Source: an uncultured bacterium
Lineage (GTDB): Bacteria > Omnitrophota > Omnitrophia > Omnitrophales > Aquincolibacteriaceae
Direction of reading: 5' to 3'
Assembly (NCBI GenBank): GCA_964541285.1
Contig: CAZIQJ010000001.1
Coordinates: forward strand, 2,888-43,522
Length of the DNA: 40,635 nucleotides
Under the pieces are notes generated by a model. That model worked only from the letters and a program-made list of their open reading frames with translations. It had not been told where the DNA came from and searched no databases. The position numbers were made by a program, and so were the translations under genes. Every line of letters begins with the position of its first letter. The first letter of the stretch is position 1. Shown one piece after another: positions 735 to 37,403 of this stretch.

Positions 735-833
735 ATGACATTTAGAAAAGATTTTAAAATCATCCGGTCTGTGGTGGCGGCCCTGACGCTTACGGCGTTT
801 ATGGCCACTTCCGTTATTCAGCCCGGATGGGCC
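735..833 (+). other. N-terminal Sec-type signal peptide or membrane anchor of the giant protein
   Basis: MTFRKDFKIIR (basic n-region), SVVAALTLTAFMATSVI (hydrophobic core), QPGWA|AP (small residues at -3 and -1). Confidence 0.7.
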
Positions 834-2588
834 GCGCCTGCTTCCGCTCCTGAAACTGGAATCTCACTTCCTTTTTATCTGGACCTTCCGGGCGAACTTG
901 GAAAAGTTGAAACCGCTGTTTCCGGAAAGGGGCCGGTTATTTTCCACATTCAGACCGCTCACGGAAATTATGAAGCTCAGCTGAAAATCCGGGAAATTCT
1001 TCACTACCTTCGCGACAAGCACAATGCCGATCTTTTGCTTCTGGAAGGCACTTCGTTCAAACCCGATGCCGGACTGCTGCAGTTTCTTGAAGACCCCGCC
1101 CTCAACCGTGAAGTTGCGGATCAGCTGACCCACAAGGCTCTTTTGAAAGGCGCTGAACTCTTCATGATGGATGAGCCGTCGTTTCCCGTTTACGGTATTG
1201 AAAATCTTGAAGCTTATTCGGAGAACGGCAGCGCCTTCCGGGACGTTCTGGAACAGAAAAAGACCACGGATGTTTTTCTCAAGAGTTTTGATGAACAGAT
1301 CAACCGGCTGACCGCGGCTTTTTTAAACAAGAACCTGAAAAACTTTCTCAAGCAGTCGGAAGACTATGAAAAGGGGAATATTTCATTTCCCGATTATCTG
1401 GAGAACCTGACAAAGCAGGCGGGAGAAATCCTGAAACTGGACCTCCAGGACCCTGCCAGCCAGATTGACTGGCCCATGCTGGTGCGTATGGCCAGGCTGC
1501 ATGAGCTGGAAAACGGGCTTGACTGGAAAACCTGCCAGAAAGAAAGAAAAGAATTTCTCGAGAAAATCCGGCTGTACCGGCTTCCCGGGGACCTTTACCG
1601 CAGCCTTGAAGCCGCGCTTTCCATGGAGCTGTCCAGGACCGAACTTCCAAACTCCGGAACCAGCCGTTTGTTCGAGGAAATGGTGACCAAACTTCCCGCC
1701 AGTTTTCCGTACGCCAAATATCCCCAATTGGTACGGTTCATGGCCCACCTGATGCTGCAGAGCGAAATGCGCGGCAAAGACCTTTTCAGGGAAACCGAGG
1801 AACTTAAAATCAAGATTGCCCTGAAGCTCGCGGTTTCATCCGAAGAAAAACGCGTTCTCCAGCTGCTGGAACGCTACCATCTTTTGCGCAAGCTTTTCGC
1901 GCTTGGTTTGACGCCGGGGGAATACACCAGGGTAAAGCGCGCGGAGAAAAGACTTGAGCCCTCTGAAATCGCGCGCCAGTTTTCCGAGCTGACCCGCAAG
2001 CCCGGAGTCAAAGACGTGGATTTTTCACACCTTGCGGAGATGGACGTTCTGTTTCGCAAAGGCCTTGAGTTTTACCGCGGCGCCAGGGACCGCGACCGCT
2101 GGATGCTTGAAAATATTGAGTCGCGCATGAAGGCCGCGGGCAAAACGCGCGCGGTGGTCATTACGGGCGGCTTCCATTCCGGTCCGTTCAAGGATTTCTT
2201 TGAAGGCCGCGGTTATTCCTACGCGCTTATGACTCCGGCCATGAACACGCTTGATGGAGAAAAGGAATATCAGGAGGCCAGCCTTCAGAATACCCCTTTT
2301 GAATTCTTGAAATCCACGCGCGAATCTCCTTATCCGTATTCTCTTTCTCCCGCGCTTTCACGGCAGGAGGGCGTCCGCGTTGACTGGGCGGCAGACCGGC
2401 TTGTGGCCGCGGAAACGCAGGTTTTGAAGACCGCCGGAAGACTCCGCGAGCTTCCCGACCAGGCCAACGGGAAAGCAGCTTCCGGAAATTTCGGTATTGT
2501 CTATAACCCTTCACCCGGAAGCGATGCCGTGGTGGTTTCCGCTCCGGGGCTTGCTTTTAAATCCATTTCAGTCACGGGCGTGGTCCGC
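735..2588 (+). other. Module 0 (aa 1-618): signal peptide plus TraB/PrgY/GumN/ChaN/Tiki-superfamily-like domain (putative metalloprotease fold)
   Basis: VIFHIQTAHGNYEAQ...NADLLLLEG (nt 936-1049) and RDRDRWMLEN...AVVITGGFHSG (nt 2085-2183) resemble the GTxH...E, RD..M and GxGH signature of this superfamily. A long helical insert lies between them. Confidence 0.45.
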
Positions 2589-32500: not shown

Positions 32501-35500
32501 CCATGACGTCCTGATACGCGACCTTCATCAATACACGACTCTCGCGATTAATGAGAAGCGCCGCCAGAACGGCGCCCTGATTGTTCCCAGCCACGAACTG
32601 CTGATGCATTTCATGTGGCTTTCAAAAGCCCGCGGCGAACTTGACCTCGACCAGTTCGGCGCTTACATCAGAAACCCCGGCATTTATGCGGCCACACCTG
32701 AACATCCGGTTTTTCGCGTGTTCGAGCGTCCGGCCGCCCGTATCGCTCATCATGTCGACGCGCTTATGTCCCGCCGTGAGTCGCTGCGTTCTGAAGTCCG
32801 CGATTCCGATGTTGATTTTGATGAGTTCAGGACCGCGGCGGTAAAAGTGCTTGAGAAAATGGATGCCGCATATAACGAACTTCATGACAAGGCTTTCGCT
32901 GTTTCCGATCCGGCCGGGCAGCTTGTGAAGCTGGAAGACCTGCTTTTGCGGGACGATTTTGCCGCTTACCTGGAGCACAGGGAAACCATTTTGAAATTGC
33001 GCAGGCTTTACAGCGCCGGCGCTTTTTCTTATGGCGATGAGCGTAATAACCAGCGCCCGGAATTAGAGCTTCTGCAGACTTTCAGCAAAGAGGCGCTCGG
33101 CCTTCCGGACATCAAGGACAAAAAAGCGGCTGCTGAGCGGGCCGCGCGCGGGTCGTTTGATTTTTATGTCTATCATCTGCTTTCGCTGCTGGCATTTTCC
33201 GCTTATGCCGAGTGGCGGCAGAGCACGGCCGCGGACCGTGATGAAACCGCGCGCAAGAACATGGCTGAAGTGGAAAGTCTCTTGAAGAGTTTCCGTGGAA
33301 AATCCGTGCAGGGTTTTGACACAGACCCGCTTCTTTCGCTGCACCTGCTTTCTTCGTATCTGAGTTTTGATGAGCCTGAATATTTTCAGCTTGAGGCCTT
33401 TGCCCGCGCGCTGGGCGAGCAGGCCCTGGAACGCTGGGATGAATACACGCTGCGTACTATCGGCCGCCATTTGCGCGGAGTTTTTTATGTTCGGTACCGC
33501 ACCGTGGAACACCGCCACCGCAATTCCCTGGATTATTCGCTGCTTGTTCCCGCCCTCGGCCGCGAACTTGACCGCTATCAGAAAGCGCGCACCTCGGGCA
33601 ATGAGGTTTCCCGCCTGCGCCGCGCGCAAAATATTCTGGAAGGCCTTTCCGGAGACCCTGCATTTACGGTTTCCTCCGGCGTGCTTGCCAGGTTCAAGAG
33701 CGACGGGGGAGCCCCGTGGCACAAGGACTGGAACCGCCGTGTTTATCCTTCTGATGATCCTGCTTCGCTTCTGGCATATGGCCAGGCCTTGCGCCGGGAG
33801 AGGGGTTTTCTGTTTGGGGATATGCGAGTGCTCAAGCCTGTTCCCGGCGGCTATTCTCCTCTTGGCCGTCCGGATGTCTATTCCATGGAGCTGCTGAAAT
33901 ATATTGTGCTGGCGTCTATTCTTTCGCCGGGGTATGAAAAAATGACTTTTGGCGACCTTCTTGAAGGTGACAAGCCTTCGGCGTCTGAAGCGGATTCGCT
34001 CAAAGTTTCATGGAACCGGGAAATTGACATGAGAGGGAAAAAATATTCCATCGACCGGTTCCCTGAAGAAGCCCTGCGTTATTACAGCCCGCGCCGCGCT
34101 CAGGAGGAGTATGAAAGCGTGCGGAGCGCTCTTGCCAACTCTGATACTTTTGCTGATGAAGAGGGAAGCGAGGATGTCGTGCGATCTGAAATGCGCACTC
34201 CGGAAGATACCGGCAAAGAAGCCTCTGGTCCGGCATTGGCGCAGTCCAGGCAGTTTTTGATGAGTGTTGGAGACCAGATCCTTGTCAGGTTAAGCGATCA
34301 GCCTTTTGAAAGCACGGGCCGCCCGCCTTATCTGCTTCTGGATTACCGCGTCGCCAAAGCGGCTTCGTCGGGAAGCACGAAAATAAAAATCTGGTTTCCG
34401 ATCCGTTCCTATACCGCACAACGTGAAGGAAGCAGCAAGTACCTGGACCCGAAAAAGTATATTGTCATCAGCGGTTCGGATAATGTTTTTGTGGTTCAGC
34501 CCAGGGCGCCTGAACTTCTTAAAGACGCGCGGGTCATCGAGGTCACGGTGGCGGACATCGGCGGAAAAAAGCTTCAGGTGTATGTCCGTTCCAAAACCAA
34601 AGATATGCCCACGGAAATAGTTTCGGCCGCGGACAGGATCTTGACTGAAAAAATGCTTCCGAATGAGACCGGAGAACAGGCATTGCCTCAGCCTGAAAAA
34701 CTTGTTTTCGGAGATTTTACACTTCAATCCCTTGATGAGAAGGGCAGTTACGAGCGCCGCTTTGTCCGGGGTGAAGACGGGCTTTTCCGGCCGTTTGAGG
34801 TGCGTTCGGAACACCGCCGGATTTCTCCGGAAAAAGCGCGTGAGATGCTGGCCCGCACCGCAACGCCCGGGTTTAAAAGATATTTTGAGCTCCGCCGCCA
34901 GATGCTTCCGGAAGAATTTGAGCAGCTTTCCGCGCAGCAGCTGATCGTTATCCTGACCCGCCTGCTTGAGAGACCGGTTTATTCGGAAAGAGCCGGCATT
35001 CTTCCTGAGGCCGCGGACAGCGCGGTTGAGAAAAAAATCGGCACCGGCCGTGTGGCCGCGTCGCCCGCGCATGCGGCCTGGATGCAGGGTGTGGCTTCCA
35101 TCAAGGGGCGCGTGCTTCTGGATTACAATGAAATGCTGGGTATCGCGCGCAGAAACCCCCGCATGTTTTTTATTCTTTTGAAAGCATTCCGTCAGTATGA
35201 AGATTCTCTGGGCGTTCACCAGCCGCTTATGGCCATGGCAGGGGAAGGCGACAGAAAAGCACTGCTGCGCGAACTGGGCCAGGTGCTTTTGAACCAGAAA
35301 AACCGCGAAATGTTTTCTTCGGAAGAGCGCGCAGAGCTGGAGAACCAGATCCTTCCGCAGCTGGACAATTTTATTTTCATCCTGTCCCCGGAAAAAATTC
35401 CGGGTTACCTTGAGGCCAACGAATACGGCGTCGCGACTCTGCGGTTTTCCGGCAACGGCCTGCTTTCCCAGCTTCCTCTTGGCGCGGAGTTTTTGATCGA

Positions 35501-35753
35501 CGGCCGCAGCCTTGACCAGATGGATGACCGTGACCTTGTCGCGGTGGCGTTTTTGATCCCGAACCTTCTGAAAGCCGCTTCGCTGGTCCGCGGCATCAAG
35601 GCCAATCCCGCGGAACAGGCCCGGCTGCTGAAAACCTACCTGCAGACCCTGCTTCCGGGTGTCAGCAGCAGCGCTCGCGGGTTCCTGATTCAGCTGGGCG
35701 ATTATCTCGACCAGGTGGTTTTGAGCCGCGACCTGATCCAGAGCGCCGCGTAA
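735..35753 (+). CDS. Giant modular protein (11,672 aa); candidate polyprotein of 24 modules joined by RSEMR junction motifs
   Basis: Single open frame of 35,019 nt from ATG 735 to TAA 35751-35753. An in-frame TAA at 726-728 blocks upstream extension. Many recognisable domains all lie in this one frame (see module features). All antisense and alternate-frame ORFs are shorter, none exceeding 820 aa. Confidence 0.9.
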   Translation: MTFRKDFKIIRSVVAALTLTAFMATSVIQPGWAAPASAPETGISLPFYLDLPGELGKVETAVSGKGPVIFHIQTAHGNYEAQLKIREILHYLRDKHNADLLLLEGTSFKPDAGLLQFLEDPALNREVADQLTHKALLKGAELFMMDEPSFPVYGIENLEAYSENGSAFRDVLEQKKTTDVFLKSFDEQINRLTAAFLNKNLKNFLKQSEDYEKGNISFPDYLENLTKQAGEILKLDLQDPASQIDWPMLVRMARLHELENGLDWKTCQKERKEFLEKIRLYRLPGDLYRSLEAALSMELSRTELPNSGTSRLFEEMVTKLPASFPYAKYPQLVRFMAHLMLQSEMRGKDLFRETEELKIKIALKLAVSSEEKRVLQLLERYHLLRKLFALGLTPGEYTRVKRAEKRLEPSEIARQFSELTRKPGVKDVDFSHLAEMDVLFRKGLEFYRGARDRDRWMLENIESRMKAAGKTRAVVITGGFHSGPFKDFFEGRGYSYALMTPAMNTLDGEKEYQEASLQNTPFEFLKSTRESPYPYSLSPALSRQEGVRVDWAADRLVAAETQVLKTAGRLRELPDQANGKAASGNFGIVYNPSPGSDAVVVSAPGLAFKSISVTGVVRRSEMRAGENDYKSLLAGFTSVELKALKAMPDVMSVLAGAKPYASGFMPKKNSNTVLFFEHFKDVLKDTSNAGFVVRVEPKANKYSIYLRSRIQEEFSREEARQLFERYGLLEEYKAIVNQVNGPDTWLSVVQSQDFFAKDSNGVPVEGAFTRKQQIVDLILGVAFGYYLSDVDFSVSQTGREIKLPLRQVRGIYPNLGWLGNPANAAASDALLRSYEQAAREVADFIETKIVRSEMRAGTKAQVLFSILDQLQVSDAGEQTARTRELLEQLEKRLPKDGNWPRWDDEDWKGFGNLRYFAAARGIYQKLSGEKHASLVLLMQMIYDHYSLTSTRGEVSTRERENSLESFYGLIKSKMATVQQAVKKKSTDALPQRPIIIRYPAAGDGSQVMGLAQNIQKEFPGVPFRVDAYDRKVRYYLVEQGVDFAVFDSRGRLAQAGINGELYNDEDLIPAADQEDFKELKKRFQSSIIAVSFSRLNPGLETAQQDLAGKGVELVFDEMEIENDPYAAKSADIILLSNPRYSIKAPEFVEPTLGSASSRGVWSVLWTSHLDSIRSLFKLYGRTLKAPDADGHPGGSLLILQNEEGGDSSRYDVYTRENQELVLKPHLTGVTGNEISGQGFSALVAAYERSGYPHLKRIPIERNAHVLTRKEADALARLSRPVPVRWEDLKIIFTDHSHMLFNPGGKPNRALIAYLEELFEAGAIMVIETGDGSETVVANGIIRSIKSKYRRQIILNSATGAVAYGFDKRGRLDRENPYFNLAESLLSSVEMDRWKGVLKKVFSDYGLGPAVIDKGYGDYEKSFITSKDGINYSLSIDRRLTRMDERQGEAKNQWLMSRGLPPMVPAGKVFDLRTSIQTYLKLELANAKLAGKIDVSLVSTRTLETTIHGINKRAAIYELIRRGIIRQKLQENLNRLLRSVPAEKKAAFQAEFPKDYDARYTEVYGDSFALRGNRMSDAEVALALPGVYKVSFDGGVIPRQWLAPGVVQHPGAGGPDGLRDYLEQKKEKSTSTGKKREQVERRSEMRAWTNEALQKWAESAVSGNLEVTARLQQILDILNNAALSKNKKKEGIAALLREASVADPRRVAHQLAGADPQAFGAPAEIKTPVTPAPVTARRTIPPAPAKTVTSASSPAAAATPEDVMWQRLEKEVGNYSSIENLRTALVIMLEYLKSNGYPYSAVLDNFIDHVRVAQPMPEPYASQGMPFGKEKSRDHAVFLINTRPVNVFSRIQDLRSSRSKLGAAATDFMIENILATLMGEAWGMHFNSPSGEEVRQQRNDLYTRFHPAYTDPSLAGFISLNAVLIEKIAVAEFVPELAERLAKLHYLIWARQKGLFDPVRVASALHANRRDPQVQRMSQLRQSASFVPLIATQGNPVRMLAGEISGLLGQLVNVFFTGFARGQLGTTEAAYGYFAILLQKTGVITEPELERLANRDITGMEARFEAVAARLFPAVDAELRASGIPAEFLNLEEAFRTSGLSARSEMRAEVKPEEDRWSQFHVKLDNTTIRGVSPKMNKVASGEIVVWNPREKMPDISLVRPHDSADQAEIKIANEKSALDTIWEKVREKYAFRDVYHQALLEAETLVADFRTEIRSRREKSEIIVSRFLGDVSLSRPLAEKTREILGVLLEALESREDFLFLTKETSGIPAEKARELLINAYIEKVMIKLYDVILNLPYGFNTDLEPVVKRERALSAQRKEMLEAEIPFIEAEIRRGKTPRLAIESSIARLTTQVNEMTRQVETLEAAVFAEQAEPEEAAQPQGESRQADAVTRLEFARHNLDTAVEQIGYLRSIIAEFDTYNFIYELNDESDVKARRIEQETSKHEEVLRITSAFLPEPELEEPFDSFMRSEILKGRPIAYALSKFFYHNRARIKNSEEFLAFMMRYYDISEYGIPGDKSEKSIIVFAKEIRNESDYNRLMGTLRGHGKVVAIVAPMREGELRIPHWYIFAKKNNIVVVTSANLKKARIQFSDIKPGDEGIVDGKKGFFVVNPDNASRQRFESLGRIYEYLDTYFLSRALLPAIFKDLSVIFSADEIDLAVFRESGTSGSILSRSGARGVKLFRLEEILSADRSRQGIEDDWPRLRDALAEIAAYPFFQNGNELIIRMYDVAEDKSPKFLVEGMRGPSPEWSREDVMKNMTGVRFYLSKDKKYQRFRDFGKRQLKAIFGARLQKGISPTGIKILFSDVRNAKEVFAIEELIEEAKQEFLAEAARSETLRESLSVQTSSEIAGIIDSIPTGYMFEDTLSVENERVDIFRAIADLRAKRPAERFIGIGSNDMTKSINRERMGGEMPLDELNPLLIRDILLIGKEAKKHNVPVALEGEWGGSAAMLMALLVLRHNYGVEIAPVAATSQIPELLEFARTMTWDDLVKPGIQPGPISRAEKSFKTLVELSVYPRGSFFIFRLLYQLFSWLLKIKWLPNSLRNTLEKWQIAFLRKWLPIEELNRSADELLQLFIDRVESSESFKSFKAAKEREAAEAERRALEIKQELERIAAERQTARASLEISGATAGLAASDGIILEDLNDGNFIETRQFTAGKYGLHMLPAALLRQGVEAMQSNNKVQSPVFVVNGREIALNDATGIMMAAVMPGDLVGIRGTGTREQLDAFYALAESIREEDESPSFIAAYNLGTGPAAVVVQTPTQQQAVETTVTRQFITGKYGLHMLPAALLRQGVETMAQEIRAHDVSFVVGERVIALGDALGIMTAAVMPGVEIGIRATGTPAQLEALYALAESIREEDETASFIPAQPMAVSEPAVPSSEPAAAVLETRQFTVGAYGLHMLPAALLRQGVEAMQPGDRVQGPVFVVNGAEIALNNAFGIMTASVMPGTEIGIRATGTPAQLDAFFTLAESIREEDNTPSFIPARSEVRNLEPERIPDAQREPLADAAFTAAEKIHSIKKRVLIYVPGSGRWAAELVSKMWQAMYPAETLHVLAADRAELKEALAAIPAASEGVLLFDDTVVDGRTLSDQAGQLVRSTGISEDKITAATLYAWGEESDDAELREQFGEDFIYGGFINNPGQSPFWHTRRRAAAAGSEAQQALEVRFQKDLPAAFDQLVAQRLKRSEVREKRSSEEQHVILQIINLIEALDARGIRAKVHGRDLLEFGSRGEALVDYVQRYSVLKNIDDIRRVLSWRLDIESRSGLPLNGMDSGKTAEKTRLLFDAIFDQPQFLKRWNDRDAKGAQPLNIVFFKRGQSGSEMTHLLKSLPYVNVQIVLSATDDGLGWFEASRDFQATGIPGAGKVLLDLAQDSVAKDFLTYRIKGDGKSKDELLKDFTALAEKLQSPQLRVNLSDEMSVVFQKAMRLEVDKRRKFALYLDRFLKEIRKKKAEKADYTFILKDIPLRSLALLGAAFVYRDGGSENEWQSSVDEIGSLLGVKKGNRVILPTRERQHLVAVREDGTIYFSETGINQHETDSPFLGLWLVNATVDEAFIEKFKAALAEKSVALENLPEGAVSSKLARSNRAEVYATTRKVSAEDAVKAAAVLAKISSTSPDAEKAITVTSEAAQALAQADVTFYTTAFLETNVGASLIVPGMKEAVAGNKKAAKIVLVETPASSAVNHSMDALERVHRYLGGMRTGKGDLSGIDSEVDFVLAGLTGRQTASTDFFSEVERPVNGAVSVASINAGASDAFGFYGSPSVVEAMVALTGIKRAGFRISDTQGLMPDAKALDLVSRPTNQAGLFRKNESVQALIRDIKLNFARIVRSGAFAFDVDMTLLPKNADALTDYPELAYLLMRLMREGVKVSIISGNSFEEQGARILDAIKKQMKDDLSALQNLVFFVNGGATRFNVGVNGEIISDRAYNLAHQLDRSKLGPALQTVLRGMGSRNFGLNEGELAKFIEEVKAKNPKLNLQFPWKDGGNWEPEWLTPAQLKNKKETGEPVSFPWLEMRGDFTGATEDLWIPASVTVKPMQVFEFEGRNYDLRNEFQALLRAELGADAALFVIRSGGTSSTDITSSGANKNAALENLILTEQLDPEWVFYFGDEFYRRMVSAAGGQVIQLGNDEAIALDQKLAGVRTLAVNSSDMKGAQAKTLWIGRTPQAALEFLEAVLITRAETESRYARSEMRTDARLGELGAISKRLYRNRIVEADFSRVDQIIREIFGRTKTTPGGLAVLETAGNAAFHKIYMDAAREIREKASSSDEAAADLQVYFAALEIIQDYFNSQAHRPEKPRDRKVNYRKTLAVLQVMAQAMPEDLKTRVQIATAYFHLDELRKAEVLLLPIMNLEGDIVVRRSARVTMGYLKQKAAWRRYQGILKQTKPSRRELEGVIALSEEAASYFRLVIAEYQRNQTYKAQAARAYSGFSSAERFLQQAYLKMGQIETSASARARFYLESFEHGANALEAAARALAAGAGKQDSERHSLQFYQAALQNIAGEAGAGTSAAGEIVRLGAGDWGEAERTRLKAAIDLITGLLQGRLPNGLVYSQPAQGDREALILDLAARMREDLEAAELIRGPVVKTAGELAGTSYTDLAALKNDVLEMTELDRAAIAVKLKHASEADERIARYSGAAFDGLGLDRKDLFILRYAFENFSGGQLPSSPSVSDLADIAGYAEIGYGESISAEEILERLQAGRYGFAGWKWKQPETEYSSAAAVEDAREKRRELVVFDNDHINAYAVSDARALRSMRDLSLRTRVWMRPERSAVIDALAGQIDKDIQEFSRIQSLIETDRAARRQRVSEGRLDPSRVRNLLQDLTELRSGTASREGYASRLKRLETLIANDSAFIETYISKGFRQSRPEGFRLSQLEDEAVERGKQRVEGRLAALGYAGLELPFDFQGAGAGYGMVRLESYIQLLREMNKKYPFSWLSADIAMLGQLASELSGILDPENPEAYSFEAYFRIMESATEILLRNALFVERNRPQLEDIYGSLEKVRVLVIRLEDAAVKMRDDDWTAQAVQARRRYEAFSSQIANIPRRYNHWDKISRRQQVLKKIHGLETEVSESVIRYEDRRRARMAELTSKAEGLVAQTLAAVEEKLRRRNESLPMGLDKKQVRDFRAEAGKVSAGKFVAAYYNDHEDVRKIVTAIEGDLQRVGESLAANVDSLKPAGTDFQRAVRQISADVEAGRWKELHDAAQAIVRNSYDQENIFINVIRGGNIDSHSEEFQMLDRSLTRTLQVLEGEASGLDADSVRALKEFSGSMLAYLTIVSWPSKKFKVSEETIRFFLGSRNVWESVLWYGLMEMMDETAGLMKTTARREAFTDNLDAVWIFALLMFAGDGADDFAGNETLEYTVSMEQMLEITMNSIETDRNPVEDAWRLLRSFDITPENLLQIKIDFLLGRVQARHNLAGLRNWIYDSVEAKARSKAIAVVPQRFNPLSVSAHSSFVESNKVDEKYPLWLPPVTERRELLEDLVLILSGQDKDSAANVRLQGFARARPHDLKRVLAEIREPDFTDERFRSKRDAAIEYLEKLLKRSEMRAVEVKERRAFSDYTHPLLAASYSADGRYIVTGDSGGAFQVRDSSSGIVLAKYTVHPGGKVQTVAFSPKGTKLLGADGKGNLFLWDTASGSTPISFASTRSLSNSLAFAPNGEYVYSGLNNGVVMAYDFRGTSHNYNLLPPKTEPLNVVTVSSDSTMVAAGGQQGTLSVWVDKPGNHDRIAYIEQADKEIGAIAFSPDGKTLVWGGKNSSLSFGDLTAQNFKASITKTLVPNPSRASRINALVFSNDGEYFISGHENGDIRLWNSKTRAVVYTLNSAHAGPVRALSFSPAGDYFASAGADKKLAIWEIPFDADKAASQYLSGVQGSGGFARKYEPYRLKPEVPAFISMMPSAQDGSVELRVHDLTTKTILASKPFSVFQDTGSVSIKEWRTAGRLAEAEAGRGEAGVRIREFPLDSGQYVKYPDPHYSSSGKWTVELEKQPESVIKGREETLTERLIFKTNGTEGFLNFPRQMTGRGNETWVHVTSAGKIYILQSSFYTKAASLWQFDLPAHLSGPKKGTGLFRSVDLGANGEKSLSGLTEHNGVLYSFDRKAEELIPVTAAARSEMRSSAPLSARLNEGDIASIEEALKTLPLARDFRVEFAGRVPQGTQVFRAAADVILPLLEKLDPSLARKSRTTLDGSGDAKRGNWSFYYADGTLFVVNAMTEYGVPHPERPWQEPSTKETGHRLFVRTVNDGRDMQNLLAEGKTPEQFAASLNSISRTFLGIKEGKESPLSIDLAEGKLRFTLKLERASETPRTMVIDSIDPENPAAFSGIYLVYLLLASLERRPLAAAENIAGLPFRLSLKARISLLALTIIAAALVGLGSYLLFFHKAEKPAEGSGARQIEIKIKAEKGEFEAFKEFKPEDLSFLDPKGIVITPGPHEVIRGENPDKNFKIVLRPGLPTADIMIHPSRREGFDFDGQFNIALGLEAAGGPAERAGRAMVFLQTENENGEKTETLYPLMLSQTPQRFRLDYGRGEKKSPRVTLIRIQLAPDADPQGSVIGIQLQGGMEFGVMARSEMRAPEWRVARISAAKTAETLIRFLDREEFRNLGIYAASGEGWVPSAGGDVKGLTISFPQNLRADRIPRSYGLWYTAGETGRRWTVYSQDARPEAQSMPPDAIMGEEDLATVQPESTGYEFANGYINILSDDRTNIFGSSYSSDHLWGSLITISFDTRRNQLVGIVEDGLFDFIMEQLRGLPAVAARVQADQFLLKESEAVRLKREDENNLPGVQVVPGDTPVVEFSRQGSVLNVAIGDERFNGEKVDDLETWLIRGIPGYTMDVIATRSQNALSIGIPGAAKRALLSMDGEPVDIAETLRQALVPNTEKRSEMRTRITAEDFNAASLKPLLGKKVLVRYMDHEGEHSETGILAGVGREEGLVVIRLRGEDGETRLPVRLAPPYQGKNRFISIEEALDVPAPVTATARSRRAEPVPFYKRPLVLGGLIGGLLLIVVLAVALLIPSGQKTAPPKEEPVIERPVETRPVDKGEVKDGRAPPRDGEKVQPKDKEQTKDKDKEKPKDKDKEEVKQPEPKGATANLLARVRWSEYNGGGLEEDRKDADFKLEKLSDWILGSVDPIDLSKYKAVRVTYTGEGSVKMEFKRENTHVVKDRLTLKLPDSKGEKKEIWVPIPKDGLDENPSASLFGFVQASGKAVIHDVRLFEELPEKTVPKDKETPKDKEMPKDKGTPKDKEKPKEPEKKEPPKVDPKLIISDEDRVKALPGAAEKTRQANMKMLSLFMAEGRGLQRLNGFPGRPLLTMDRIDAQGVPFNMAARFDARYTQPMLSGMQAHAIALQLTGKAPKTVTDPLTELEAQATLLAAMHKTYGGPVWLGRDPNNGGMKLDRGGKVGYEDLVAYDAHLIGAVDQILAYSDKAGPAAKKRAVALAKSLYERVKEDDALYEKLYDKDKGLFWGDIDVPKKTPIKDRHADRIRTNETRSFSALRIALLVAQKKVPESVWTDTPFYIEDKDGNSAIVYWRSAFHAGYPNTLPIENRYDPYVKLNANAGLLFANAAKETKNKTFFPTPTYVKGGEYKDKFGLKALAESADVEEDVASPIIAYTFTDLETLEFLAKEIPKLKLGNARLGGLPFASQTATVHPADQILPALIAQARWGTTLNRFIKEEALHGVVDGDKPDDGLQEIIDLLYLDPARRGWRTLQGGKVDEVKSKRSEMRVAEGEKEAPLSDTLMAFREGPFAYWLDISVENVSRSADEPKYFFFVRPRFSAYTTAITGGPSISAPVQFPVEKFLIRARNKKEAEKIFKAMRVVVLAGISDKWEAPFGKEYQALLTSLRREYADEWSLNQALTAFAWTALLSVVFAAGYAYLRETGISRDRQELAKFSKASEVMNTQPDLALSDLGSLLDSENPAMRIAAAVRFKDYRGMNVPRALQFLRTRLIKERDPEVILKLNEAISRLQTLLPKRSEMRAQEDYLRLDPAIYILGDPVINALKTAAPGAARGLVGFGADSEDFRAVRTALQSAGYVEVLYPQPAGTVILMSEDVLRRTTGPQRDYLFLSSAFYAATNELTSDQRANVLQLTKDLFARLAPHVRSGLTNASEIIPTIQLAIQMGVPMLVRQGQVGAAAFMAESGAVLNSLIRSWTERYTRYQQEWEKFKKRSEMRSPENIWINSFPAASQNEPPVAVRDQAMTDYGNIMKNVRFTPLVLAQRLSALSGKTVFVKDESKQYSGSFKARGVYWEVYSAIRKLLQGTDRLDVLRGGFKIVTQSTGNHGIATIRSTTGIVKTLRKKFAASDPELAELLLNIEPVIFTVAGLPDVKRAAMLAALNDYRSYTGKPESGKVDASFPDYESALKARVAFMKAQGPQAAYISHGGPTIIFGHGSAGIEIARQLEAAGVGADKKVVLIVPVGAGGPIGIAAGLRLARFKNTTAVMVQSDRWDAFVRSLKTGTPQKNIQPVEPTVRIRGEGQEISIIFPDGIAVDGPEPEAVAFAKDHLDAAVAVDEKAAYDRSGPLLLADLGGETDPEARVGGTSALTAEALLSYGDQIPAIRDADAVVLFATEGNVAEAVNAHLRERMGDLAAIERSYVKRSEIRELTDADISKKTLNEHFPKTEKSKSDEIVLEVNADENDANLNDIRVFIVRSLMASPYGDEYHHFLFVVDKTTGQVGAKATLSYREKDRAYEVLAPDLKAVIPQKAYMRRGIMLLLKSGALDTWYSANYRSPEAREMYRSIGMSGDYSVREVPGYGDDVLVSATLAAGAKKAGTFTRHGVMRSEMRASRDGVKYGIEYLRNAIAALHPAAGADSAELTRRKNAILPLIRIFQQRAAGMGDQEIISRGAELYLTTRYLFREKAYQDALSNSGELTEAVAEAALDVLAADDIESKSLLFGLRMIGSLGWAAWQRTAAAMTGDVPWREKAPAELAKRIVPYMLHEDEEVQEMAAFALTQIPGGAEALLSYAASLPKPESAEKELSDLKNDSPGVSASDRAVENILLFTRSGWLSILPELITIAGQPTSGMVGGNVESLLMRFGSMTFPYYMQPGSNFKIVSIIRTGPSAYATHLPALTDALKEEPRYLLQYPFSDFWAMSSLQMTGPVGETVLVPYLTEAIKQLPALNAYDQRFNSLIQSLGPAAAGMVQPLLDIVTRRPAPQTPDYDALKRSAAMALGNIGPDAEILVPGIEAILRSQARTEPALSMAEVLVAAANKIEARSEMRVDYQDLERLIQTGTAVEIPFAAGRYNPDRDLKKGDILRFPNGDLAVVNDVTEGGLTPSVYHGLSIYSSKSSQVDIIWTDGQFSRDIPQDFGNILNGLPNYISLSSAQYKVYRAPSQAADFISDRSNEDADLPYFAVSSEKRSEMRNVEIAAGPAEDEIVINGQTVKLDPRAGKAALAMNEALRPLGVTAAGMESEKPFVRFFTGNQSVTIADGYNVTIVAQALKTAMDAVLAPQVFDAQTIGGDKGVAVVGNVRASRQLPRPLMRVLNLNLASAPETAGKPFGATLVNEEGEKAAVLYGGKHIDVPADRESILAGVEEILEAAGHTVDRRSEMRTEYQVPDEEVRSLLDLTKGFFRRDPNLKFKINDNPLEWDRPSTMEVSGNVIPQYSNKVLVEIGGGEIRFVKDGIEAGPPTLENALGPRMALLSHYFEMWLSGFTAQTFAQHEQEIFEILTHLTGAFKISDEFTAEDPSDRSVYRYKGLLFFAARGAVVTISPASGDVFGGTLPGIIREVTFEELQAKSRSEMRTLEKIDFAAATREQIDGRVREAGVKAGKQKLVAGKLEALQKAGGIKSADDMRTVLAANSMLGSSPAVEKLIAFFEFKPAALPAPAVEETAAVSGAAAIPLRKMYPANLTGARSLISDTLDWLEAEQMTAFPGDAARAADGTVQWKRMADAFRKHLAGSVEFNTDGLMFFKEYKTGDDILLQVNAGILMGWFRMIQQLSAGNPEAAQTLFVFLIAALVVREVEGANAMVKDSEADKLMYERYRGLFLEGLKAWTGGNYASNDAHYHQYLLDHAAEIDEMVAPSIAGEMFEVEKMKAFLGYMQARGLYDPSKLYSSIAQVPGSTLAMRGTVNYLGLLVRSSRHDVLIRDLHQYTTLAINEKRRQNGALIVPSHELLMHFMWLSKARGELDLDQFGAYIRNPGIYAATPEHPVFRVFERPAARIAHHVDALMSRRESLRSEVRDSDVDFDEFRTAAVKVLEKMDAAYNELHDKAFAVSDPAGQLVKLEDLLLRDDFAAYLEHRETILKLRRLYSAGAFSYGDERNNQRPELELLQTFSKEALGLPDIKDKKAAAERAARGSFDFYVYHLLSLLAFSAYAEWRQSTAADRDETARKNMAEVESLLKSFRGKSVQGFDTDPLLSLHLLSSYLSFDEPEYFQLEAFARALGEQALERWDEYTLRTIGRHLRGVFYVRYRTVEHRHRNSLDYSLLVPALGRELDRYQKARTSGNEVSRLRRAQNILEGLSGDPAFTVSSGVLARFKSDGGAPWHKDWNRRVYPSDDPASLLAYGQALRRERGFLFGDMRVLKPVPGGYSPLGRPDVYSMELLKYIVLASILSPGYEKMTFGDLLEGDKPSASEADSLKVSWNREIDMRGKKYSIDRFPEEALRYYSPRRAQEEYESVRSALANSDTFADEEGSEDVVRSEMRTPEDTGKEASGPALAQSRQFLMSVGDQILVRLSDQPFESTGRPPYLLLDYRVAKAASSGSTKIKIWFPIRSYTAQREGSSKYLDPKKYIVISGSDNVFVVQPRAPELLKDARVIEVTVADIGGKKLQVYVRSKTKDMPTEIVSAADRILTEKMLPNETGEQALPQPEKLVFGDFTLQSLDEKGSYERRFVRGEDGLFRPFEVRSEHRRISPEKAREMLARTATPGFKRYFELRRQMLPEEFEQLSAQQLIVILTRLLERPVYSERAGILPEAADSAVEKKIGTGRVAASPAHAAWMQGVASIKGRVLLDYNEMLGIARRNPRMFFILLKAFRQYEDSLGVHQPLMAMAGEGDRKALLRELGQVLLNQKNREMFSSEERAELENQILPQLDNFIFILSPEKIPGYLEANEYGVATLRFSGNGLLSQLPLGAEFLIDGRSLDQMDDRDLVAVAFLIPNLLKAASLVRGIKANPAEQARLLKTYLQTLLPGVSSSARGFLIQLGDYLDQVVLSRDLIQSAA
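2589..3284 (+). other. Module 1 (aa 619-850): no recognisable family
   Basis: Bounded by RSEMR at 2589 and 3285. 232 aa, mixed alpha/beta-looking sequence. Confidence 0.5.
3285..5654 (+). other. Module 2 (aa 851-1640): class-I methyltransferase-like region, then HAD-IIB-like region with non-canonical motif I
   Basis: IIIRYPAAGDGSQ (motif I-like), VDAYDRK, ADIILLSNPRYS (NPPY-like). Then IIFTDHSHML (DxDxT degraded to DxSxM), ETGDGSE and EVYGDSF. Confidence 0.3.
5655..7037 (+). other. Module 3 (aa 1641-2101): orphan, with Pro/Ala-rich linker
   Basis: Bounded by RSEMR at 5655 and 7038. The linker TPVTPAPVTARRTIPPAPAKTVTSASSPAAAATPE separates a short helical head from a domain of about 330 aa. 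Confidence 0.5.
8301..9707 (+). other. PTS Enzyme I (PtsI)/PEP-utilising-enzyme-like domain: phospho-His swivel plus TIM barrel
   Basis: Aligns by eye to E. coli EI. ELRIPHWYIFAKKNNIVVV vs [20 protein letters not shown] (His codon 8430-8432). GVKLFRLEEILSADR vs GVGLYRTEFLFMDR. LIIRMYDVAEDK vs VIVRTMDIGGDK. IPTGYMFEDT vs IEIGVMVETP. FIGIGSNDMTKS vs FFSIGTNDLTQY. VALEGEWGG vs TGMCGELAG, where the catalytic Cys position is Glu (codon 9561-9563). Confidence 0.65.
10191..10475 (+). repeat. HPr-like domain, tandem copy 1
   Basis: ETRQFTAGKYGLHMLPAALLRQGVEAM...GIMMAAVMPGDLVGIRGTGTREQLDAFYALAESIREED. GLHxxPA matches the HPr GLHARPA active-site loop (His codon 10227-10229). Confidence 0.7.
10554..10838 (+). 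repeat. HPr-like domain, tandem copy 2
   Basis: VTRQFITGKYGLHMLPAALLRQGVETM...GIMTAAVMPGVEIGIRATGTPAQLEALYALAESIREED. Starts 363 nt after copy 1. Confidence 0.7.
10905..11189 (+). repeat. HPr-like domain, tandem copy 3
   Basis: ETRQFTVGAYGLHMLPAALLRQGVEAM...GIMTASVMPGTEIGIRATGTPAQLDAFFTLAESIREED. Starts 351 nt after copy 2. The copies differ at many synonymous sites. Confidence 0.7.
11196..11792 (+). other. Module 5 (aa 3488-3686): type-I phosphoribosyltransferase-like domain
   Basis: PRPP-loop signature VLLFDDTVVDGRT (11463-11501), preceded by a KRVLIYVPGSGRWAAELV Rossmann-like strand and helix. Bounded on both sides by the RSEVR variant. Confidence 0.6.
12162..13335 (+). other. CofD/YvcK-family-like (2-phospho-L-lactate transferase / gluconeogenesis-factor fold) domain
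   Basis: LNIVFFKRGQSGSEMTHLLKSLPYVNVQIVLSATDDGLGW resembles the GGGTG...IVtvaDdGGS N-terminal signature. Later elements are RVILPTRERQHLVAVREDGTIYFSETGI and ADVTFYTTAFLETNVGASLIVPGMKEAV...AKIVLV. Confidence 0.45.
13728..14640 (+). other. HAD-IIB-type phosphatase-like domain with canonical catalytic motif
   Basis: Motif I FAFDVDMTLLP (DxDxT intact), motif II VSIISGNS, SGANKNAALENL (Lys motif), motif IV FYFGDEF...LGNDEA. Confidence 0.6.
14799..18860 (+). other. Module 7 (aa 4689-6042): large, predominantly helical (TPR/solenoid-like) orphan
   Basis: 1354 aa, rich in A/L/E/R. Helical-repeat-looking segments such as TRVQIATAYFHLDELRKAEVLL. No catalytic signature recognised. Confidence 0.3.
18861..20561 (+). 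other. Module 8 (aa 6043-6609): WD40 beta-propeller plus C-terminal beta-rich domain
   Basis: Repeated blades at about 18897-19800: ASYSADGRYIVTGDSGGAFQVRD, VAFSPKGTKLLGADGKGNLFLWD, LAFAPNGEYVYSGLNNGVVMAYD, IAFSPDGKTLVWGG, LVFSNDGEYFISGHENGDIRLWN, LSFSPAGDYFASAGADKKLAIWE. Confidence 0.8.
20562..21929 (+). other. Module 9 (aa 6610-7065): orphan domain, single TM helix, beta-rich ectodomain
   Basis: TM helix ISLLALTIIAAALVGLGSYLLFF at 21300-21368. The downstream segment (IEIKIKAEKGEFEAF...VTLIRIQL...VIGIQLQGG) looks like a beta-sandwich. Confidence 0.5.
21930..22865 (+). other. Module 10 (aa 7066-7377): orphan
   Basis: Bounded by RSEMR at 21930 and 22866. 312 aa, no family recognised. Confidence 0.5.
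23394..23480 (+). repeat. Low-complexity K/D/P/E-rich linker 1
   Basis: PKDKEQTKDKDKEKPKDKDKEEVKQPEPK, built from AAR/GAY/CCN codon repeats. Confidence 0.9.
23889..23996 (+). repeat. Tandem 18-nt (6-aa) repeat linker 2
   Basis: PKDKET / PKDKEM / PKDKGT / PKDKEK / PKEPEK / KEPPKV. About six imperfect units of 18 nt, in frame. Confidence 0.9.
25386..26144 (+). other. Module 12 (aa 8218-8470): orphan head, single TM helix, HEAT-like tail
   Basis: TM helix LTAFAWTALLSVVFAAGYAYL at 25794-25856. The tail ENPAMRIAAAVRFKDYRG...RDPEVILKLNEAISRL resembles HEAT/PBS-lyase repeats. Confidence 0.45.
26145..26729 (+). other. Module 13 (aa 8471-8665): orphan
   Basis: Bounded by RSEMR at 26145 and 26730. 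195 aa. Confidence 0.5.
26730..28022 (+). other. Module 14 (aa 8666-9096): PLP-dependent fold-type-II enzyme (threonine/serine dehydratase or Trp-synthase-beta family)
   Basis: VFVKDESKQYSGSFKARGVYWEV (PLP Lys codon 26952-26954), VTQSTGNHGIA, Gly-rich phosphate loop VPVGAGGPIGIAAG. Confidence 0.8.
28023..28574 (+). other. Module 15 (aa 9097-9280): possible GNAT-type acetyltransferase
   Basis: VIPQKAYMRRGIMLLLKSGAL (motif A-like R-x-x-G) followed by YSANYRSPEAREMYRSIGM (motif B-like). Begins with the RSEIR variant. Confidence 0.35.
28575..29885 (+). other. Module 16 (aa 9281-9717): HEAT/ARM-like helical repeats
   Basis: HEDEEVQEMAAFALTQIPGG, ALKRSAAMALGNIGPDAEILVPGIEAIL and other roughly 30-40 aa helical hairpin repeats. 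Confidence 0.5.
29886..30320 (+). other. Module 17 (aa 9718-9862): orphan, 145 aa
   Basis: Bounded by RSEMR at 29886 and 30321. Confidence 0.5.
30321..30887 (+). other. Module 18 (aa 9863-10051): orphan, 189 aa
   Basis: Bounded by RSEMR at 30321 and 30888. Confidence 0.5.
30888..31466 (+). other. Module 19 (aa 10052-10244): orphan, 193 aa
   Basis: Bounded by RSEMR at 30888 and 31467. Confidence 0.5.
31467..32786 (+). other. Module 20 (aa 10245-10684): orphan, 440 aa
   Basis: Bounded by RSEMR at 31467 and RSEVR at 32787. Confidence 0.5.
32787..34181 (+). other. Module 21 (aa 10685-11149): orphan, helical, 465 aa
   Basis: Bounded by RSEVR at 32787 and RSEMR at 34182. Confidence 0.5.
34182..34802 (+). 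other. Module 22 (aa 11150-11356): orphan, beta-rich, 207 aa
   Basis: Bounded by RSEMR at 34182 and RSEHR at 34803. Confidence 0.5.
34803..35750 (+). other. Module 23 (aa 11357-11672): orphan C-terminal module, 316 aa
   Basis: Begins with the RSEHR variant at 34803 and ends at the stop codon. Confidence 0.45.
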
Positions 35754-35809: not shown

Positions 35810-35865
35810 CAACAGATCAAATTCTCTTGGAACCCCAAAGGAACTTATATATGGAGACCCATACC

Positions 35866-36663
35866 ATGAGCGAAAGCTCGACATTCAAATCCGACCTTCT
35901 TAAAGGCAAGAAAGCCCTTGTTGTGGGCGTTGCCAACAAACGCAGTATTGCCTGGGGCATTGCCCAGGCCCTTGCCAATCACGGCGCGCAGCTGGCCTTT
36001 ACCTATCAGGGTGAACGCCTGAAGGAAAGTGTGGAGGAACTTGCGGCCACGCTTCCTTTGAAATCTCCGCTTTATCCCTGCGACGTGACCAAGGATGATG
36101 AAATCAAGGCCGCGTTTGAAGCCATTGGAAAAGATTTCGGCTCTCTGCAGATGCTGGTGCATTGCGTGGCTTTCGCGAAAAAGGAAGATATCAGCGGCCG
36201 TACCGTGGATACTTCACGTGATGGTTTCGCCCTGGCCCATGACATCAGCTCTTACTCGCTGATCGCGCTGTCCAAGGCCGCGGAGCCGCTTCTTGAAAAA
36301 GAGGGCGGCAGCATTGTGGCCCTGACTTATCTGGGCGCGGACAAGGTCATTCCCAACTACAATATTATGGGGCTGGCCAAGGCCAGCCTGGAGTCCGGTA
36401 TCCGTTATCTGGCCGCAGACCTTGGCAAGAAGAACATCCGCGTCAACGGCGTTTCCGCCGGCCCGGTCAACACGCTTGCCGCCCGCGGCATCGCGGGTTT
36501 CACGACCATGCTGGAAAATCACCGCAACCGCGCCCCGCTGGGCCGTAACGTGGAAATCGAAGAAGTCGCCAACGCCGCGCTGTTTCTTCTGAGCCCGCTT
36601 GGAAGCGGTATCACCGGAGAAACGATTTACGTGGACTGCGGCTACCGCGTCATAGGTGCGTGA
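35866..36663 (+). CDS. fabI: Enoyl-[acyl-carrier-protein] reductase (NADH), FabI
   Basis: MSESSTFKSDLLKGKKALVVGVANKRSIAWGIAQAL (FabI N-terminal Gly-poor NAD loop), SYSLIAL...YLGADKVIPNYNIMGLAKASLE (Tyr-x6-Lys catalytic region), VNGVSAGPVNTLAARGI. GGAG at 35853-35856 lies 9 nt before ATG 35866, so I prefer this start over the TTG at 35827 in the ORF track. Confidence 0.93.
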   Translation: MSESSTFKSDLLKGKKALVVGVANKRSIAWGIAQALANHGAQLAFTYQGERLKESVEELAATLPLKSPLYPCDVTKDDEIKAAFEAIGKDFGSLQMLVHCVAFAKKEDISGRTVDTSRDGFALAHDISSYSLIALSKAAEPLLEKEGGSIVALTYLGADKVIPNYNIMGLAKASLESGIRYLAADLGKKNIRVNGVSAGPVNTLAARGIAGFTTMLENHRNRAPLGRNVEIEEVANAALFLLSPLGSGITGETIYVDCGYRVIGA

Positions 36664-36669
36664 TCCTGA

Positions 36670-37278: not shown

Positions 37279-37349
37279 ATCTGCTTAACTTCTTTACCTG
37301 CAATCATTTAAATTAAAGCAAAAGCCCGCTGGGAAGCGCTCCGGGTTTG

Positions 37350-37358
37350 TGATATAAT
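37350..37358 (+). promoter_or_regulatory. Candidate extended -10 promoter element upstream of iscS
   Basis: TGATATAAT (TGn + perfect TATAAT at 37353-37358), 45 nt before ATG 37404. The -35 is weak (TGGGAA). Confidence 0.4.
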
Positions 37359-37403
37359 TCCCTTCTTCTAACCCTTTACTTTTAAAACAGTTGTGAGCGA
37401 AAA

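Follow-up and report, generated by a model that had tools for sequence, protein, structure and literature searches.

The window analysed here, 40,635 nt of contig CAZIQJ010000001.1 from an uncultured Omnitrophota bacterium (GenBank assembly GCA_964541285.1), contains a giant open reading frame (ORF) at 735..35753 on the plus strand, in which 11,672 codons stay open in a single frame. A pentapeptide, RSEMR in most of its copies, recurs 23 times along the encoded protein and is almost certainly a defined junction signal that splits the ORF into protein-sized units. The mechanism that leads our list, and in which we place about as much belief as doubt, is that the pentapeptide serves as a proteolytic processing site in a bacterial polyprotein.

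Twenty-three junctions in one reading frame

Translating the ORF and searching for RSE.R returned 23 copies in its frame (18 RSEMR, three RSEVR, one RSEIR and one RSEHR), the same set, variants included, as in an original prediction made from the letters of this DNA. The composition of the protein predicts 0.007 copies of RSEMR and 0.34 of RSE.R, in keeping with the earlier estimate of a chance expectation far below one, and 23 of the 25 RSE tripeptides present are part of the pentapeptide. At the DNA level, the degenerate pattern CGNTCNGARNNNMG was found 24 times versus 2.5 +/- 1.5 times in dinucleotide-preserving shuffles. The motif is absent from the other plus-strand frames and, as had been claimed, from the flanking proteins of the window; the minus strand has two matches, both antisense within the ORF.

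The intervals between motifs range from 145 to 1386 aa with a median of 434, and the modules that they delimit show no mutual similarity by BLASTP. The residue preceding the motif is most often K (8 copies), A (6), R (3) or V (3) (n=23), that following it is A in 8 and T in 5, and position +3 is E in 10, with little information elsewhere in the flanks. Recomputation gave the same intervals as the original prediction and the same flank counts (K or R before 11/23 copies, A before 6/23, and A, T or S after 15/23). Its central claim, a junction signal under selection at the peptide level, is upheld by the analysis below and extends to a whole protein family. The ORF and its junctions are as follows.

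735..35753, plus strand: giant ORF, 11,672 aa; signal peptide, N-domain, 22 cargo modules, C-module
2589..2603, plus strand: junction 1, RSEMR (aa 619); aligns with the post-N-domain boundary of relatives
3285..3299, plus strand: junction 2, RSEMR
5655..5669, plus strand: junction 3, RSEMR
7038..7052, plus strand: junction 4, RSEMR
11196..11210, plus strand: junction 5, RSEVR
11793..11807, plus strand: junction 6, RSEVR
14799..14813, plus strand: junction 7, RSEMR
18861..18875, plus strand: junction 8, RSEMR
20562..20576, plus strand: junction 9, RSEMR
21930..21944, plus strand: junction 10, RSEMR
22866..22880, plus strand: junction 11, RSEMR
25386..25400, plus strand: junction 12, RSEMR
26145..26159, plus strand: junction 13, RSEMR
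26730..26744, plus strand: junction 14, RSEMR
28023..28037, plus strand: junction 15, RSEIR
28575..28589, plus strand: junction 16, RSEMR
29886..29900, plus strand: junction 17, RSEMR
30321..30335, plus strand: junction 18, RSEMR
30888..30902, plus strand: junction 19, RSEMR
31467..31481, plus strand: junction 20, RSEMR
32787..32801, plus strand: junction 21, RSEVR
34182..34196, plus strand: junction 22, RSEMR
34803..34817, plus strand: junction 23, RSEHR; aligns with the pre-C-module boundary of relatives

A family of giant proteins in Omnitrophota

A phmmer search with aa 1-1200 of the window protein against 1.84 billion representative sequences found 6,387 relatives of the conserved N-terminal domain (N-domain) at E <= 1e-3, 812 of them at E <= 1e-30. 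In nearly all top matches, aa ~10-570 of the window protein align to the relative's own N-terminus. The matched relatives are 388-7,823 aa long, and where their sources name an organism it is Candidatus Omnitrophota. Scanning one genome per GTDB species with the N-domain alignment gave 80 loci, mostly in metagenome-assembled genomes labelled Omnitrophota and the remainder mostly in 'uncultured bacterium' records, with multiple paralogues in several genomes. The modular giant proteins appear to form a very large family specific to Omnitrophota.

The statistics below refer to a family set of 151 proteins (150 retrieved relatives and the window protein; 450,710 aa), in which the window protein is the longest of the 109 sequences that end in Ala and are apparently full-length. 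The architecture of the family consists of a signal, the N-domain, variable cargo and, in members whose end could be examined, a C-terminal module (C-module), with RxExR at the boundaries. A hydrophobic signal-like segment is found in 95 of 100 complete family N-termini. Cysteine is nearly absent, at 0.066% in the 151 proteins versus 1.32% in neighbouring ORFs; the window protein has a single Cys in 11,672 aa, and its four flanking proteins have 0.6-1.3%. This near-absence reflects strong and specific selection against Cys. The original prediction had overlooked the Omnitrophota origin, the conserved terminal modules, the near-absence of Cys and the N-terminal signal peptide as a family trait.

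At the family loci the upstream genes are fabF, lpxA, rpsA, hisC, pyrF and carB, in conserved synteny, and the motif is absent from the neighbouring housekeeping ORFs. We considered a dedicated neighbouring protease or secretion gene and rejected it, given this conserved housekeeping neighbourhood and the finding that the loci share no gene of either kind. Polyprotein genes can stand in tandem (L008/L065, contig JBAYGD010000013.1). In L023 and L025 the ORF directly upstream looks like the C-terminal part of a further protein with the motif, in the variant that the neighbouring giant gene also uses.

The motif marks unit boundaries across the family

In the family set, RxExR was observed 1,127 times versus 163 expected, and the control patterns K.E.K, R.D.R, R.E.K and K.E.R occurred at 0.6-0.9 times expectation. 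Position 2 (n=1,127) is Ser in 744 cases and Ala in 183 (16%), with Pro, Asn and Gln accounting for a further 64. At position 4, L, V, A, M or I is preferred, and Ala, Ser or Thr makes up ~23%. The resulting consensus, R-[SA]-E-[LVAMI]-R, recurs in the genome loci, and in some whole proteins RAEVR or RPELR is the standard junction.

The motif falls where units end. In most relatives its first copy lies at aa ~560-680, directly past the N-domain, and for most C-module matches a motif stands close to the projected C-module start, between a few residues and some tens of residues away. In the relative P0004, copies of RSEAR bracket a hexokinase and an acyl carrier protein (ACP), each of them complete: the alignments cover residues 23-476 of the 485 in yeast hexokinase and 2-77 of 78 in the ACP, and the spacers are 0-10 residues long. 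At aa 1891-2700 of this relative the motif bounds two ACPs and the hexokinase, which is full-length, eukaryote-type and similar to the yeast enzyme (E about 1e-60).

As the searches yielded no ortholog with the window's own cargo order, conservation of the junctions was tested in other family pairs. Four pairs of relatives share a common cargo order (P0030/P0037, P0008/P0038, P0056/P0060 and P0115/P0104). The original prediction had set, beforehand, the finding of homologues with the same module order and no junction motif as the test of its claim. In these pairs RxExR is kept at 32 of 33 aligned junctions, and the finding passes. The +/-25-aa flanks of the same junctions are 39-60% identical, whereas the R, E and R columns are 93-100% identical. 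Gain and loss of cargo between relatives is modular.

The surroundings of the motif are those of linkers. At 929 family sites P, S, T and A are enriched at positions -5 to -1 and D and E at +2 to +5, and aromatics are depleted on both sides, a composition that is a linker signature. AlphaFold2 (AF2) models, built with family alignments, place the motif outside the folded parts of the window protein: aa 521-618, ahead of junction 1, have a block-mean predicted local distance difference test (pLDDT) of 24-33, and the first four residues of junction 23 are below 50, in agreement with the exposed linkers that had been proposed as a check. Consecutive motifs in the family are separated by a median of 229 aa (5-95% range 28-959). 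Distances below 40 aa, about 6.5% of the total, form double junctions such as RSEAR-GLGPVPLSINK-RSEAR; short spacer peptides would be released from these if both sites were cut.

Individual proteins are consistent in the variant that they use. The entropy of position 4 within proteins is 1.42 bits, versus 2.13 +/- 0.04 when residues are drawn at random from the whole family, with M preferred in the window protein (18/23), L in P0030 (12/12) and A or V in P0004. Motif usage also correlates with the relatedness of the N-domains (Mantel r 0.27, p 0.001). The per-protein preference at position 4, together with this correlation, suggests that the motif has a specific reader, with a preference that shifts from lineage to lineage. 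The reader may be encoded in the giant protein itself or act in trans; among same-genome paralogue pairs, of which there are only 9, motif similarity was 0.73 versus 0.65 (permutation p 0.20).

Proteolytic processing as the leading mechanism

Under the reading that we favour, a dedicated endopeptidase would recognise R-[S/A]-E-[L/V/A/M/I]-R at the unit boundaries. Its cuts in the short linkers would free the two terminal modules and the roughly 22 cargo proteins between them, such that the giant gene would encode a cellular polyprotein, an 'operon in one ORF'. The candidate protease would be the N-domain of the same protein. If cleavage is true, Omnitrophota would have a phylum-wide cellular polyprotein strategy with dozens of unrelated proteins per ORF, and the motif and its enzyme would constitute a new protease-site pair of possible biotechnological use. 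That the chain is cleaved, by which protease, at which bond and in which compartment are all points that we infer from sequences and models.

The terminal features of the window protein are listed here.

735..833, plus strand: Sec-type signal peptide or signal anchor (aa 1-33, ...QPGWA|AP), read from the sequence
882..2294, plus strand: conserved N-domain (aa ~50-520), candidate Tiki/ChaN/erythromycin-esterase-like hydrolase
1533..1535, plus strand: Cys267, the single Cys codon in the ORF; relatives do not conserve it
2295..2588, plus strand: low-confidence linker (aa 521-618) leading into junction 1, block-mean pLDDT 24-33
34803..35750, plus strand: C-module (316 aa, aa 11357-11672), alpha/beta fold, ends ...SAA

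The N-terminus of the window protein resembles a Sec signal peptide, MTFRKDFKIIRSVVAALTLTAFMATSVIQPGWA|AP, and in the AF2 model aa 6-23 form a helix, after which confidence is low for a stretch. The N-domain beyond it is modelled well, with block-mean pLDDT mostly at 81-95 over aa 51-500, as an alpha/beta core split by a helical insertion of ~300 aa (aa 158-468). In an alignment of eleven homologues, H71, Q73, H76, E104 and E156 are invariant and T477-G-G-F-H481 is nearly so. Foldseek against the PDB returned, as top matches, the erythromycin esterases EreC (6xcs, 6xcq) and BcR135 (3b55, 2rad) along with HopBA1; all are weak, with EreC first (best E 0.14) and template modelling scores of 0.18-0.25. 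Three N-domain homologues have below-threshold Pfam matches in the TGGFH region, to ChaN of the 'Tiki superfamily' (E 2.3e-4, 21.6 bits versus a cut-off of 27.7) and to DUF5694 (15.2 bits versus a cut-off of 27.5).

The Tiki/ChaN superfamily includes the Wnt-cleaving metalloprotease TIKI as well as TraB/PrgY. In a possible likeness to the Tiki, TraB, ChaN and erythromycin-esterase proteins, the N-domain has a His and a Glu 28 aa apart and then a C-terminal G-x-x-His; it differs from the superfamily in the helical insertion that splits its core and in the lack of a significant match. H71, H76, E104 and H481 may correspond to the catalytic residues of EreB or TIKI, a likeness of spacing and not of a significant alignment. 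Given the enzyme-like set of invariant His and Glu residues and the weak Tiki/ChaN/esterase signals in both sequence and fold, the N-domain is the best candidate for the protease, and that it is the protease is our working hypothesis, a testable guess. Cys267 was rejected as a catalytic cysteine, given that it is not conserved and that many relatives have no Cys at all. The N-domain also contains, at aa 342-346 (1758-1772), the sequence QSEMR within a conserved L-Q-S-E-[LMI]-[KR] stretch that resembles the junction motif, and which could be a pseudo-substrate or a coincidence.

At the other end of the protein, a phmmer search with aa 11357-11672 detected the C-module in 23 of the 150 relatives; nearly all 23 have their main match at the C-terminus or no more than ~30 residues from it. 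The C-terminal Ala is invariant in the C-module alignment, 109 of the 151 family proteins end in Ala, and in 101 of these 109 the residue at position -2 is A, S or M. The AF2 model of the C-module is confident (pLDDT 79), except that its residues 1-4 (RSEH) fall below pLDDT 50 and its tail (…SAA, 35742-35750) is of low confidence. Foldseek gave no meaningful match for the module and a word-index protein search found nothing. The only invariant polar residue is one Asp, and the C-module therefore looks less like an enzyme. The tail may be similar to those read by tail-specific proteases or unfoldases. Together, the exclusion of Cys and the invariant C-terminal Ala point to a shared handling pathway.

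Which bond and which compartment

The residues around the family motif bear on where a cut might fall. At +1, S, T and A are favoured, Pro is found at 0.4 times expectation and aromatics are disfavoured, a pattern that fits a cut after R5. The tolerance of Pro at position 2 (RPELR) argues against a cut between R1 and position 2.

Signals inside the chains supply a further line of evidence. Hydrophobic signal-like segments starting within 20 aa past a motif number 48 versus 11.6 expected (~4-fold). Lipoboxes follow the motif in P0066 (…AGLVGC, aa ~1220-1247) and P0091 (…GLVSC, aa ~2914-2931), and a Tat-like RRDF follows it in P0018 (aa ~2520-2550) and P0025 (aa ~3075-3110). Such internal signals mean that the N-termini of units act like the N-termini of proteins, which supports the polyprotein idea. 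P0044, at aa ~1190-1218, is another of the relatives with a cargo unit that opens with a lipoprotein- or Tat-like signal directly past the motif.

Several observations weigh against proteolytic processing by the N-domain. Direct evidence of cleavage was found neither in the sequence data nor in the literature searched, and no protease gene is conserved beside the giant genes at the family loci. The window's N-domain has no Pfam match, a profile search of solved structures with it came back empty, and its tie to a superfamily that contains proteases is below significance. The loci L011, L016 and L076 have few or no motifs. A pure peptide signal leaves the CGY-TCN bias at motif codons 1-2 (described below) unaccounted for. 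In 15 of 53 post-motif signal-like cores, the motif provides the only preceding positive charges; this suggests that the motif remains on the downstream unit, with a cut before R1 or no cut, so that the scissile bond is ambiguous between X|R1 and R5|X. Finally, the topology is inconsistent: the N-terminal Sec signal and the exclusion of Cys suggest that the whole chain exits the cytoplasm unfolded, whereas the internal Tat and lipoprotein signals and the cytosolic-type enzymes among the family cargo (hexokinase, ACP and glutamate dehydrogenase) suggest processing in the cytoplasm.

Omnitrophota are thought to be ultra-small episymbionts or predators. One conceivable scenario, to which we give little credence, is that the Cys-free chains are exported into a host or prey as 'effector trains', where cuts at RxExR would release metabolic enzymes (hexokinase, ACP, PTS parts and PLP enzymes) and proteins with Sec, Tat or lipoprotein signals of their own, the latter to be sorted by the victim's own export machinery. 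This would reconcile the Sec signal, the avoidance of Cys, the cytosolic-type enzymes and the internal signals past the junctions.

Alternative roles for the pentapeptide

The alternative that survives best, possible if somewhat unlikely, is that no cut occurs and the giant protein works intact, with the motif acting as a conserved hinge or as a docking peptide for a common partner, for example the C-module or an external scaffold. Uncleaved multi-enzyme fusions are familiar from eukaryotes, for example AROM and CAD, and the lack of a conserved protease nearby is what this reading expects. On one face of an extended strand R-x-E-x-R would present a +/-/+ stripe of charges, which would suit beta-augmentation. 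In Nielsen and Lui 2026 each of these giants is handled as one polypeptide. However, a hinge needs no five-residue specificity at 93-100% identity amid drifting flanks, the units include small diffusible partners such as ACP, and some carry lipoprotein or Tat signals of their own right past the motif. A particular form of docking suggested earlier, to the protein's own WD40 and HEAT modules, is not general: P0066, with 21 strict copies of the motif, and P0042, with 13, have no WD40 or HEAT Pfam match at E <= 1e-5.

The motif could instead be a topogenic or translocation signal (an 'inside' marker, an n-region or a translocase checkpoint) that threads successive units, which we regard as improbable. 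The ~4-fold enrichment of signal-like segments within 20 aa past the motif, and the cores for which the motif supplies the sole charges, would be explained in this way, as would N-terminal signals combined with Cys exclusion, both of which are expected of chains that cross membranes unfolded. Yet a hydrophobic segment follows only 60 of 968 junctions (~6%), and none of the 23 in the window, and an n-region needs charge rather than an invariant Glu between two invariant Arg at fixed spacing.

A role for the motif as DNA or RNA, be it a cassette-recombination site, an RNase site that splits the mRNA or an internal start at the ATG of RSEMR, is very improbable in our estimation. It was raised in part by codon usage. 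In the window all 23 copies of the motif use TCN for Ser (background 67%), and 22/23 use CGY for Arg1. At 288 family sites CGY encodes Arg1 in 79%, versus 43-49% for Arg in background and in Arg-Ser pairs outside the motif; for Ser, TCN accounts for 93% versus 65-68% in background. The bias is limited to the first two codons, as those of Glu and Arg5 match background. The original prediction had argued from the diversity of codons for selection on the peptide rather than on a DNA or RNA element; codons do differ between copies, but the argument was incomplete, since Ser is always TCN and Arg1 nearly always CGY, and with this bias to exclude any nucleic-acid constraint is too strong. Modular gain and loss of cargo between relatives would likewise suit a cassette site. 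Against a nucleic-acid role, variation is free at the third base of the Ser, Glu and Arg5 codons and present at most synonymous sites of the motif, there is no conservation of flanking nucleotides, and Rfam and tRNA scans gave no match. A single base change in TCN gives each of the position-2 variants (A, T and P), which is what drift under selection on the peptide would produce. Neither an extended DNA repeat nor recently copied junctions were retained as an explanation, with the similarity around the window copies extending no further than about 20-33 nt. Internal initiation was rejected too, given that Ala, Ser or Thr at position 4 (~23% of family sites) cannot start translation and no conserved upstream element accompanies the motif.

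Self-cleavage by an N-to-O acyl shift at Ser (autoproteolytic or intein-like), which the Ser at position 2 of 23/23 window copies might recall, can practically be dismissed and was rejected, being contradicted by the 183 of 1,127 family sites with Ala, which cannot act as a nucleophile, by the 64 with Pro, Asn or Gln, and by the whole proteins in which RAEVR or RPELR is standard.

Comparison with known systems

MARTX toxins are secreted by type I secretion, are not known to have an N-terminal signal peptide, and have glycine-rich repeats and a cysteine protease that is activated by inositol hexakisphosphate (InsP6) and cuts after Leu. Their conserved N- and C-terminal regions frame variable effectors, which the toxin's own protease releases by cutting unstructured linkers. 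The window protein is alike in that conserved ends frame a variable train of unrelated units. Unlike these toxins, it has a Sec-type signal, one non-conserved Cys, another motif and, as in the family, cargo rich in metabolic enzymes, and its sequence has no Pfam match to the domains that define MARTX (cysteine protease, RTX repeats), which places it outside that group.

In the flavivirus polyprotein each junction carries a short conserved site, with Arg and small residues, internal signals follow some junctions, and the number of units is roughly 10. It shares with the window protein the single ORF, the many units and the short site at each junction. The window differs from viral polyproteins in being a cellular gene among housekeeping genes, with 24 units, another motif and no recognisable chymotrypsin- or papain-like protease. 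MARTX and the viral polyproteins are closest in logic, and, as the features that define MARTX are missing, we class the window protein as a site-specifically processed polyprotein, pending proof of cleavage.

Two further systems offer partial likenesses. The gingipain/HagA precursors of Porphyromonas gingivalis bear a signal and are cut at Arg or Lys; they comprise a few related adhesin and catalytic domains, use a cysteine protease, end in a type IX secretion system (T9SS) C-terminal domain and are not known to have a five-residue consensus. They resemble the window protein in being bacterial, signal-peptide-bearing and multi-domain with Arg sites, and they differ from it in that their domains are few and related, without a known consensus of this kind, whereas the window protein has 24 unrelated units. 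PEXEL of Plasmodium (RxLxE/Q/D) serves that host-dependent organism both as a site for a protease and as a licence for export, and is found once per protein, downstream of the signal sequence. It matches RxExR in having five residues with alternating fixed positions; the consensus is another one, RxExR recurs at junctions, and RxExR is not a PEXEL.

The junction motif is the first concrete candidate for the positions at which Omnitrophota giant proteins may be cut. It gives annotators a rule for splitting these proteins before modelling their structures and calling pathways, shows proteomics which new termini to seek, and tells biochemists which peptide to offer the N-domain.

Giant ORFs are a hallmark of Omnitrophota, and very long ones, with a signal peptide or transmembrane segment and unrelated enzyme domains strung together, have already been described (10.64898/2026.06.07.730766; 10.1101/2023.11.21.568195; Seymour et al. 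2023, PMC10066038). The window protein resembles their 'multi-enzyme metabolic cluster' class, which is from the same phylum and strings together domains such as HAD, PGM/PMM, hexokinase, WD40 and HEAT. Whether and where such giants are cut is treated as an open question in three recent papers, among them a survey of huge proteins from 2024 that counts cleavage and motifs for proteases among the open problems. West-Roberts et al. 2023 (10.1101/2023.11.21.568195) could not split the proteins for analysis because the cleavage points were unknown, and point to C39 and S8 peptidase domains; unlike those giants, the window protein has neither domain by Pfam. Nielsen and Lui 2026 (10.64898/2026.06.07.730766) report hexokinase and PGI to be missing from most Omnitrophota genomes, and such 'missing' enzymes may, we hypothesise, be embedded in giants of this kind. 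The strings 'cleav', 'motif' and 'cysteine' have 0 occurrences in the main text of that paper, the main texts searched on Omnitrophota giants mention no junction motif, conserved terminal modules or Cys depletion, and full-text literature searches combining the pentapeptides with Omnitrophota returned nothing relevant. Thus the giant ORF is a known object; its junction motif, terminal modules and Cys depletion are new relative to the main texts searched.

Cargo modules and flanking genes of the window

Window modules 1-2 and 12-20 have no detectable relatives in the representative protein library, GTDB genomes or Joint Genome Institute (JGI) metagenomes; in particular, aa 619-1200 found no partner by phmmer in the representative library, modules 17-20 had no match in GTDB genomes, and modules 17-19 had none in JGI metagenomes. 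A word-index protein search with a 2,027-aa query over modules 12-19 found nothing, the query being too long and noisy. The majority of window modules are without a Pfam match, an NCBIfam scan of ten modules found nothing, neither Pfam nor NCBIfam gave a peptidase match in any module, and sequence searches of solved structures with modules 0, 2 and 7 found no match. The cargo of the window is thus largely orphan sequence, whereas both terminal modules are widely conserved. The modules that Pfam does name, and the flanking genes, are these.

7038..11195, plus strand: cargo module 4 (1,386 aa), PEP-utilising-enzyme domain and HPr match (Pfam)
11793..14798, plus strand: cargo module 6 (1,002 aa), CofD-like and HAD hydrolase (Pfam)
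18861..20561, plus strand: cargo module 8 (567 aa), WD40 beta-propeller (Pfam)
26730..28022, plus strand: cargo module 14 (431 aa), pyridoxal phosphate (PLP)-dependent enzyme (Pfam)
91-612, upstream: HAD hydrolase
35827-38588, downstream: FabI, RNase H-like exonuclease, class-V aminotransferase (NifS/IscS-like)

The domain assignments made earlier from the letters stand in part. Enzyme I (EI)/HPr in module 4, CofD/HAD in module 6, WD40 in module 8 and the PLP enzyme in module 14 were recovered by Pfam, HEAT was matched weakly in modules 12 and 16, and a phosphoribosyltransferase (PRTase) in module 5 and GNAT in module 15 went undetected even at permissive E-values. In module 14, homology to serine racemase residue 17 begins at module residue 36. 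The end of module 4 (10186-11195) consists of three tandem repeats of ~120 aa (296-nt units, 70-73% identical) that overlap the HPr match. The claim that the motif falls at domain boundaries accordingly needs narrowing: it marks the borders of units, and no copy stands between these tandem repeats. The flanking genes (91-612 and 35827-38588) are ordinary and, like the other neighbours, all without the motif; a look-up of one flanking protein by exact sequence returned nothing.

Module 11 contains a K/D/E/P-rich low-complexity stretch at 23373-23984 with 12- and 18-nt periodicity, and has a faint NCBIfam match to a chlamydial inclusion-associated protein (E 0.098). Strongly hydrophobic segments of ~33 aa lie at 21282-21380 (aa 6850-6882, module 9) and at 23187-23288 (aa 7485-7518, module 11); these segments, deep in their modules, may be membrane hairpins.

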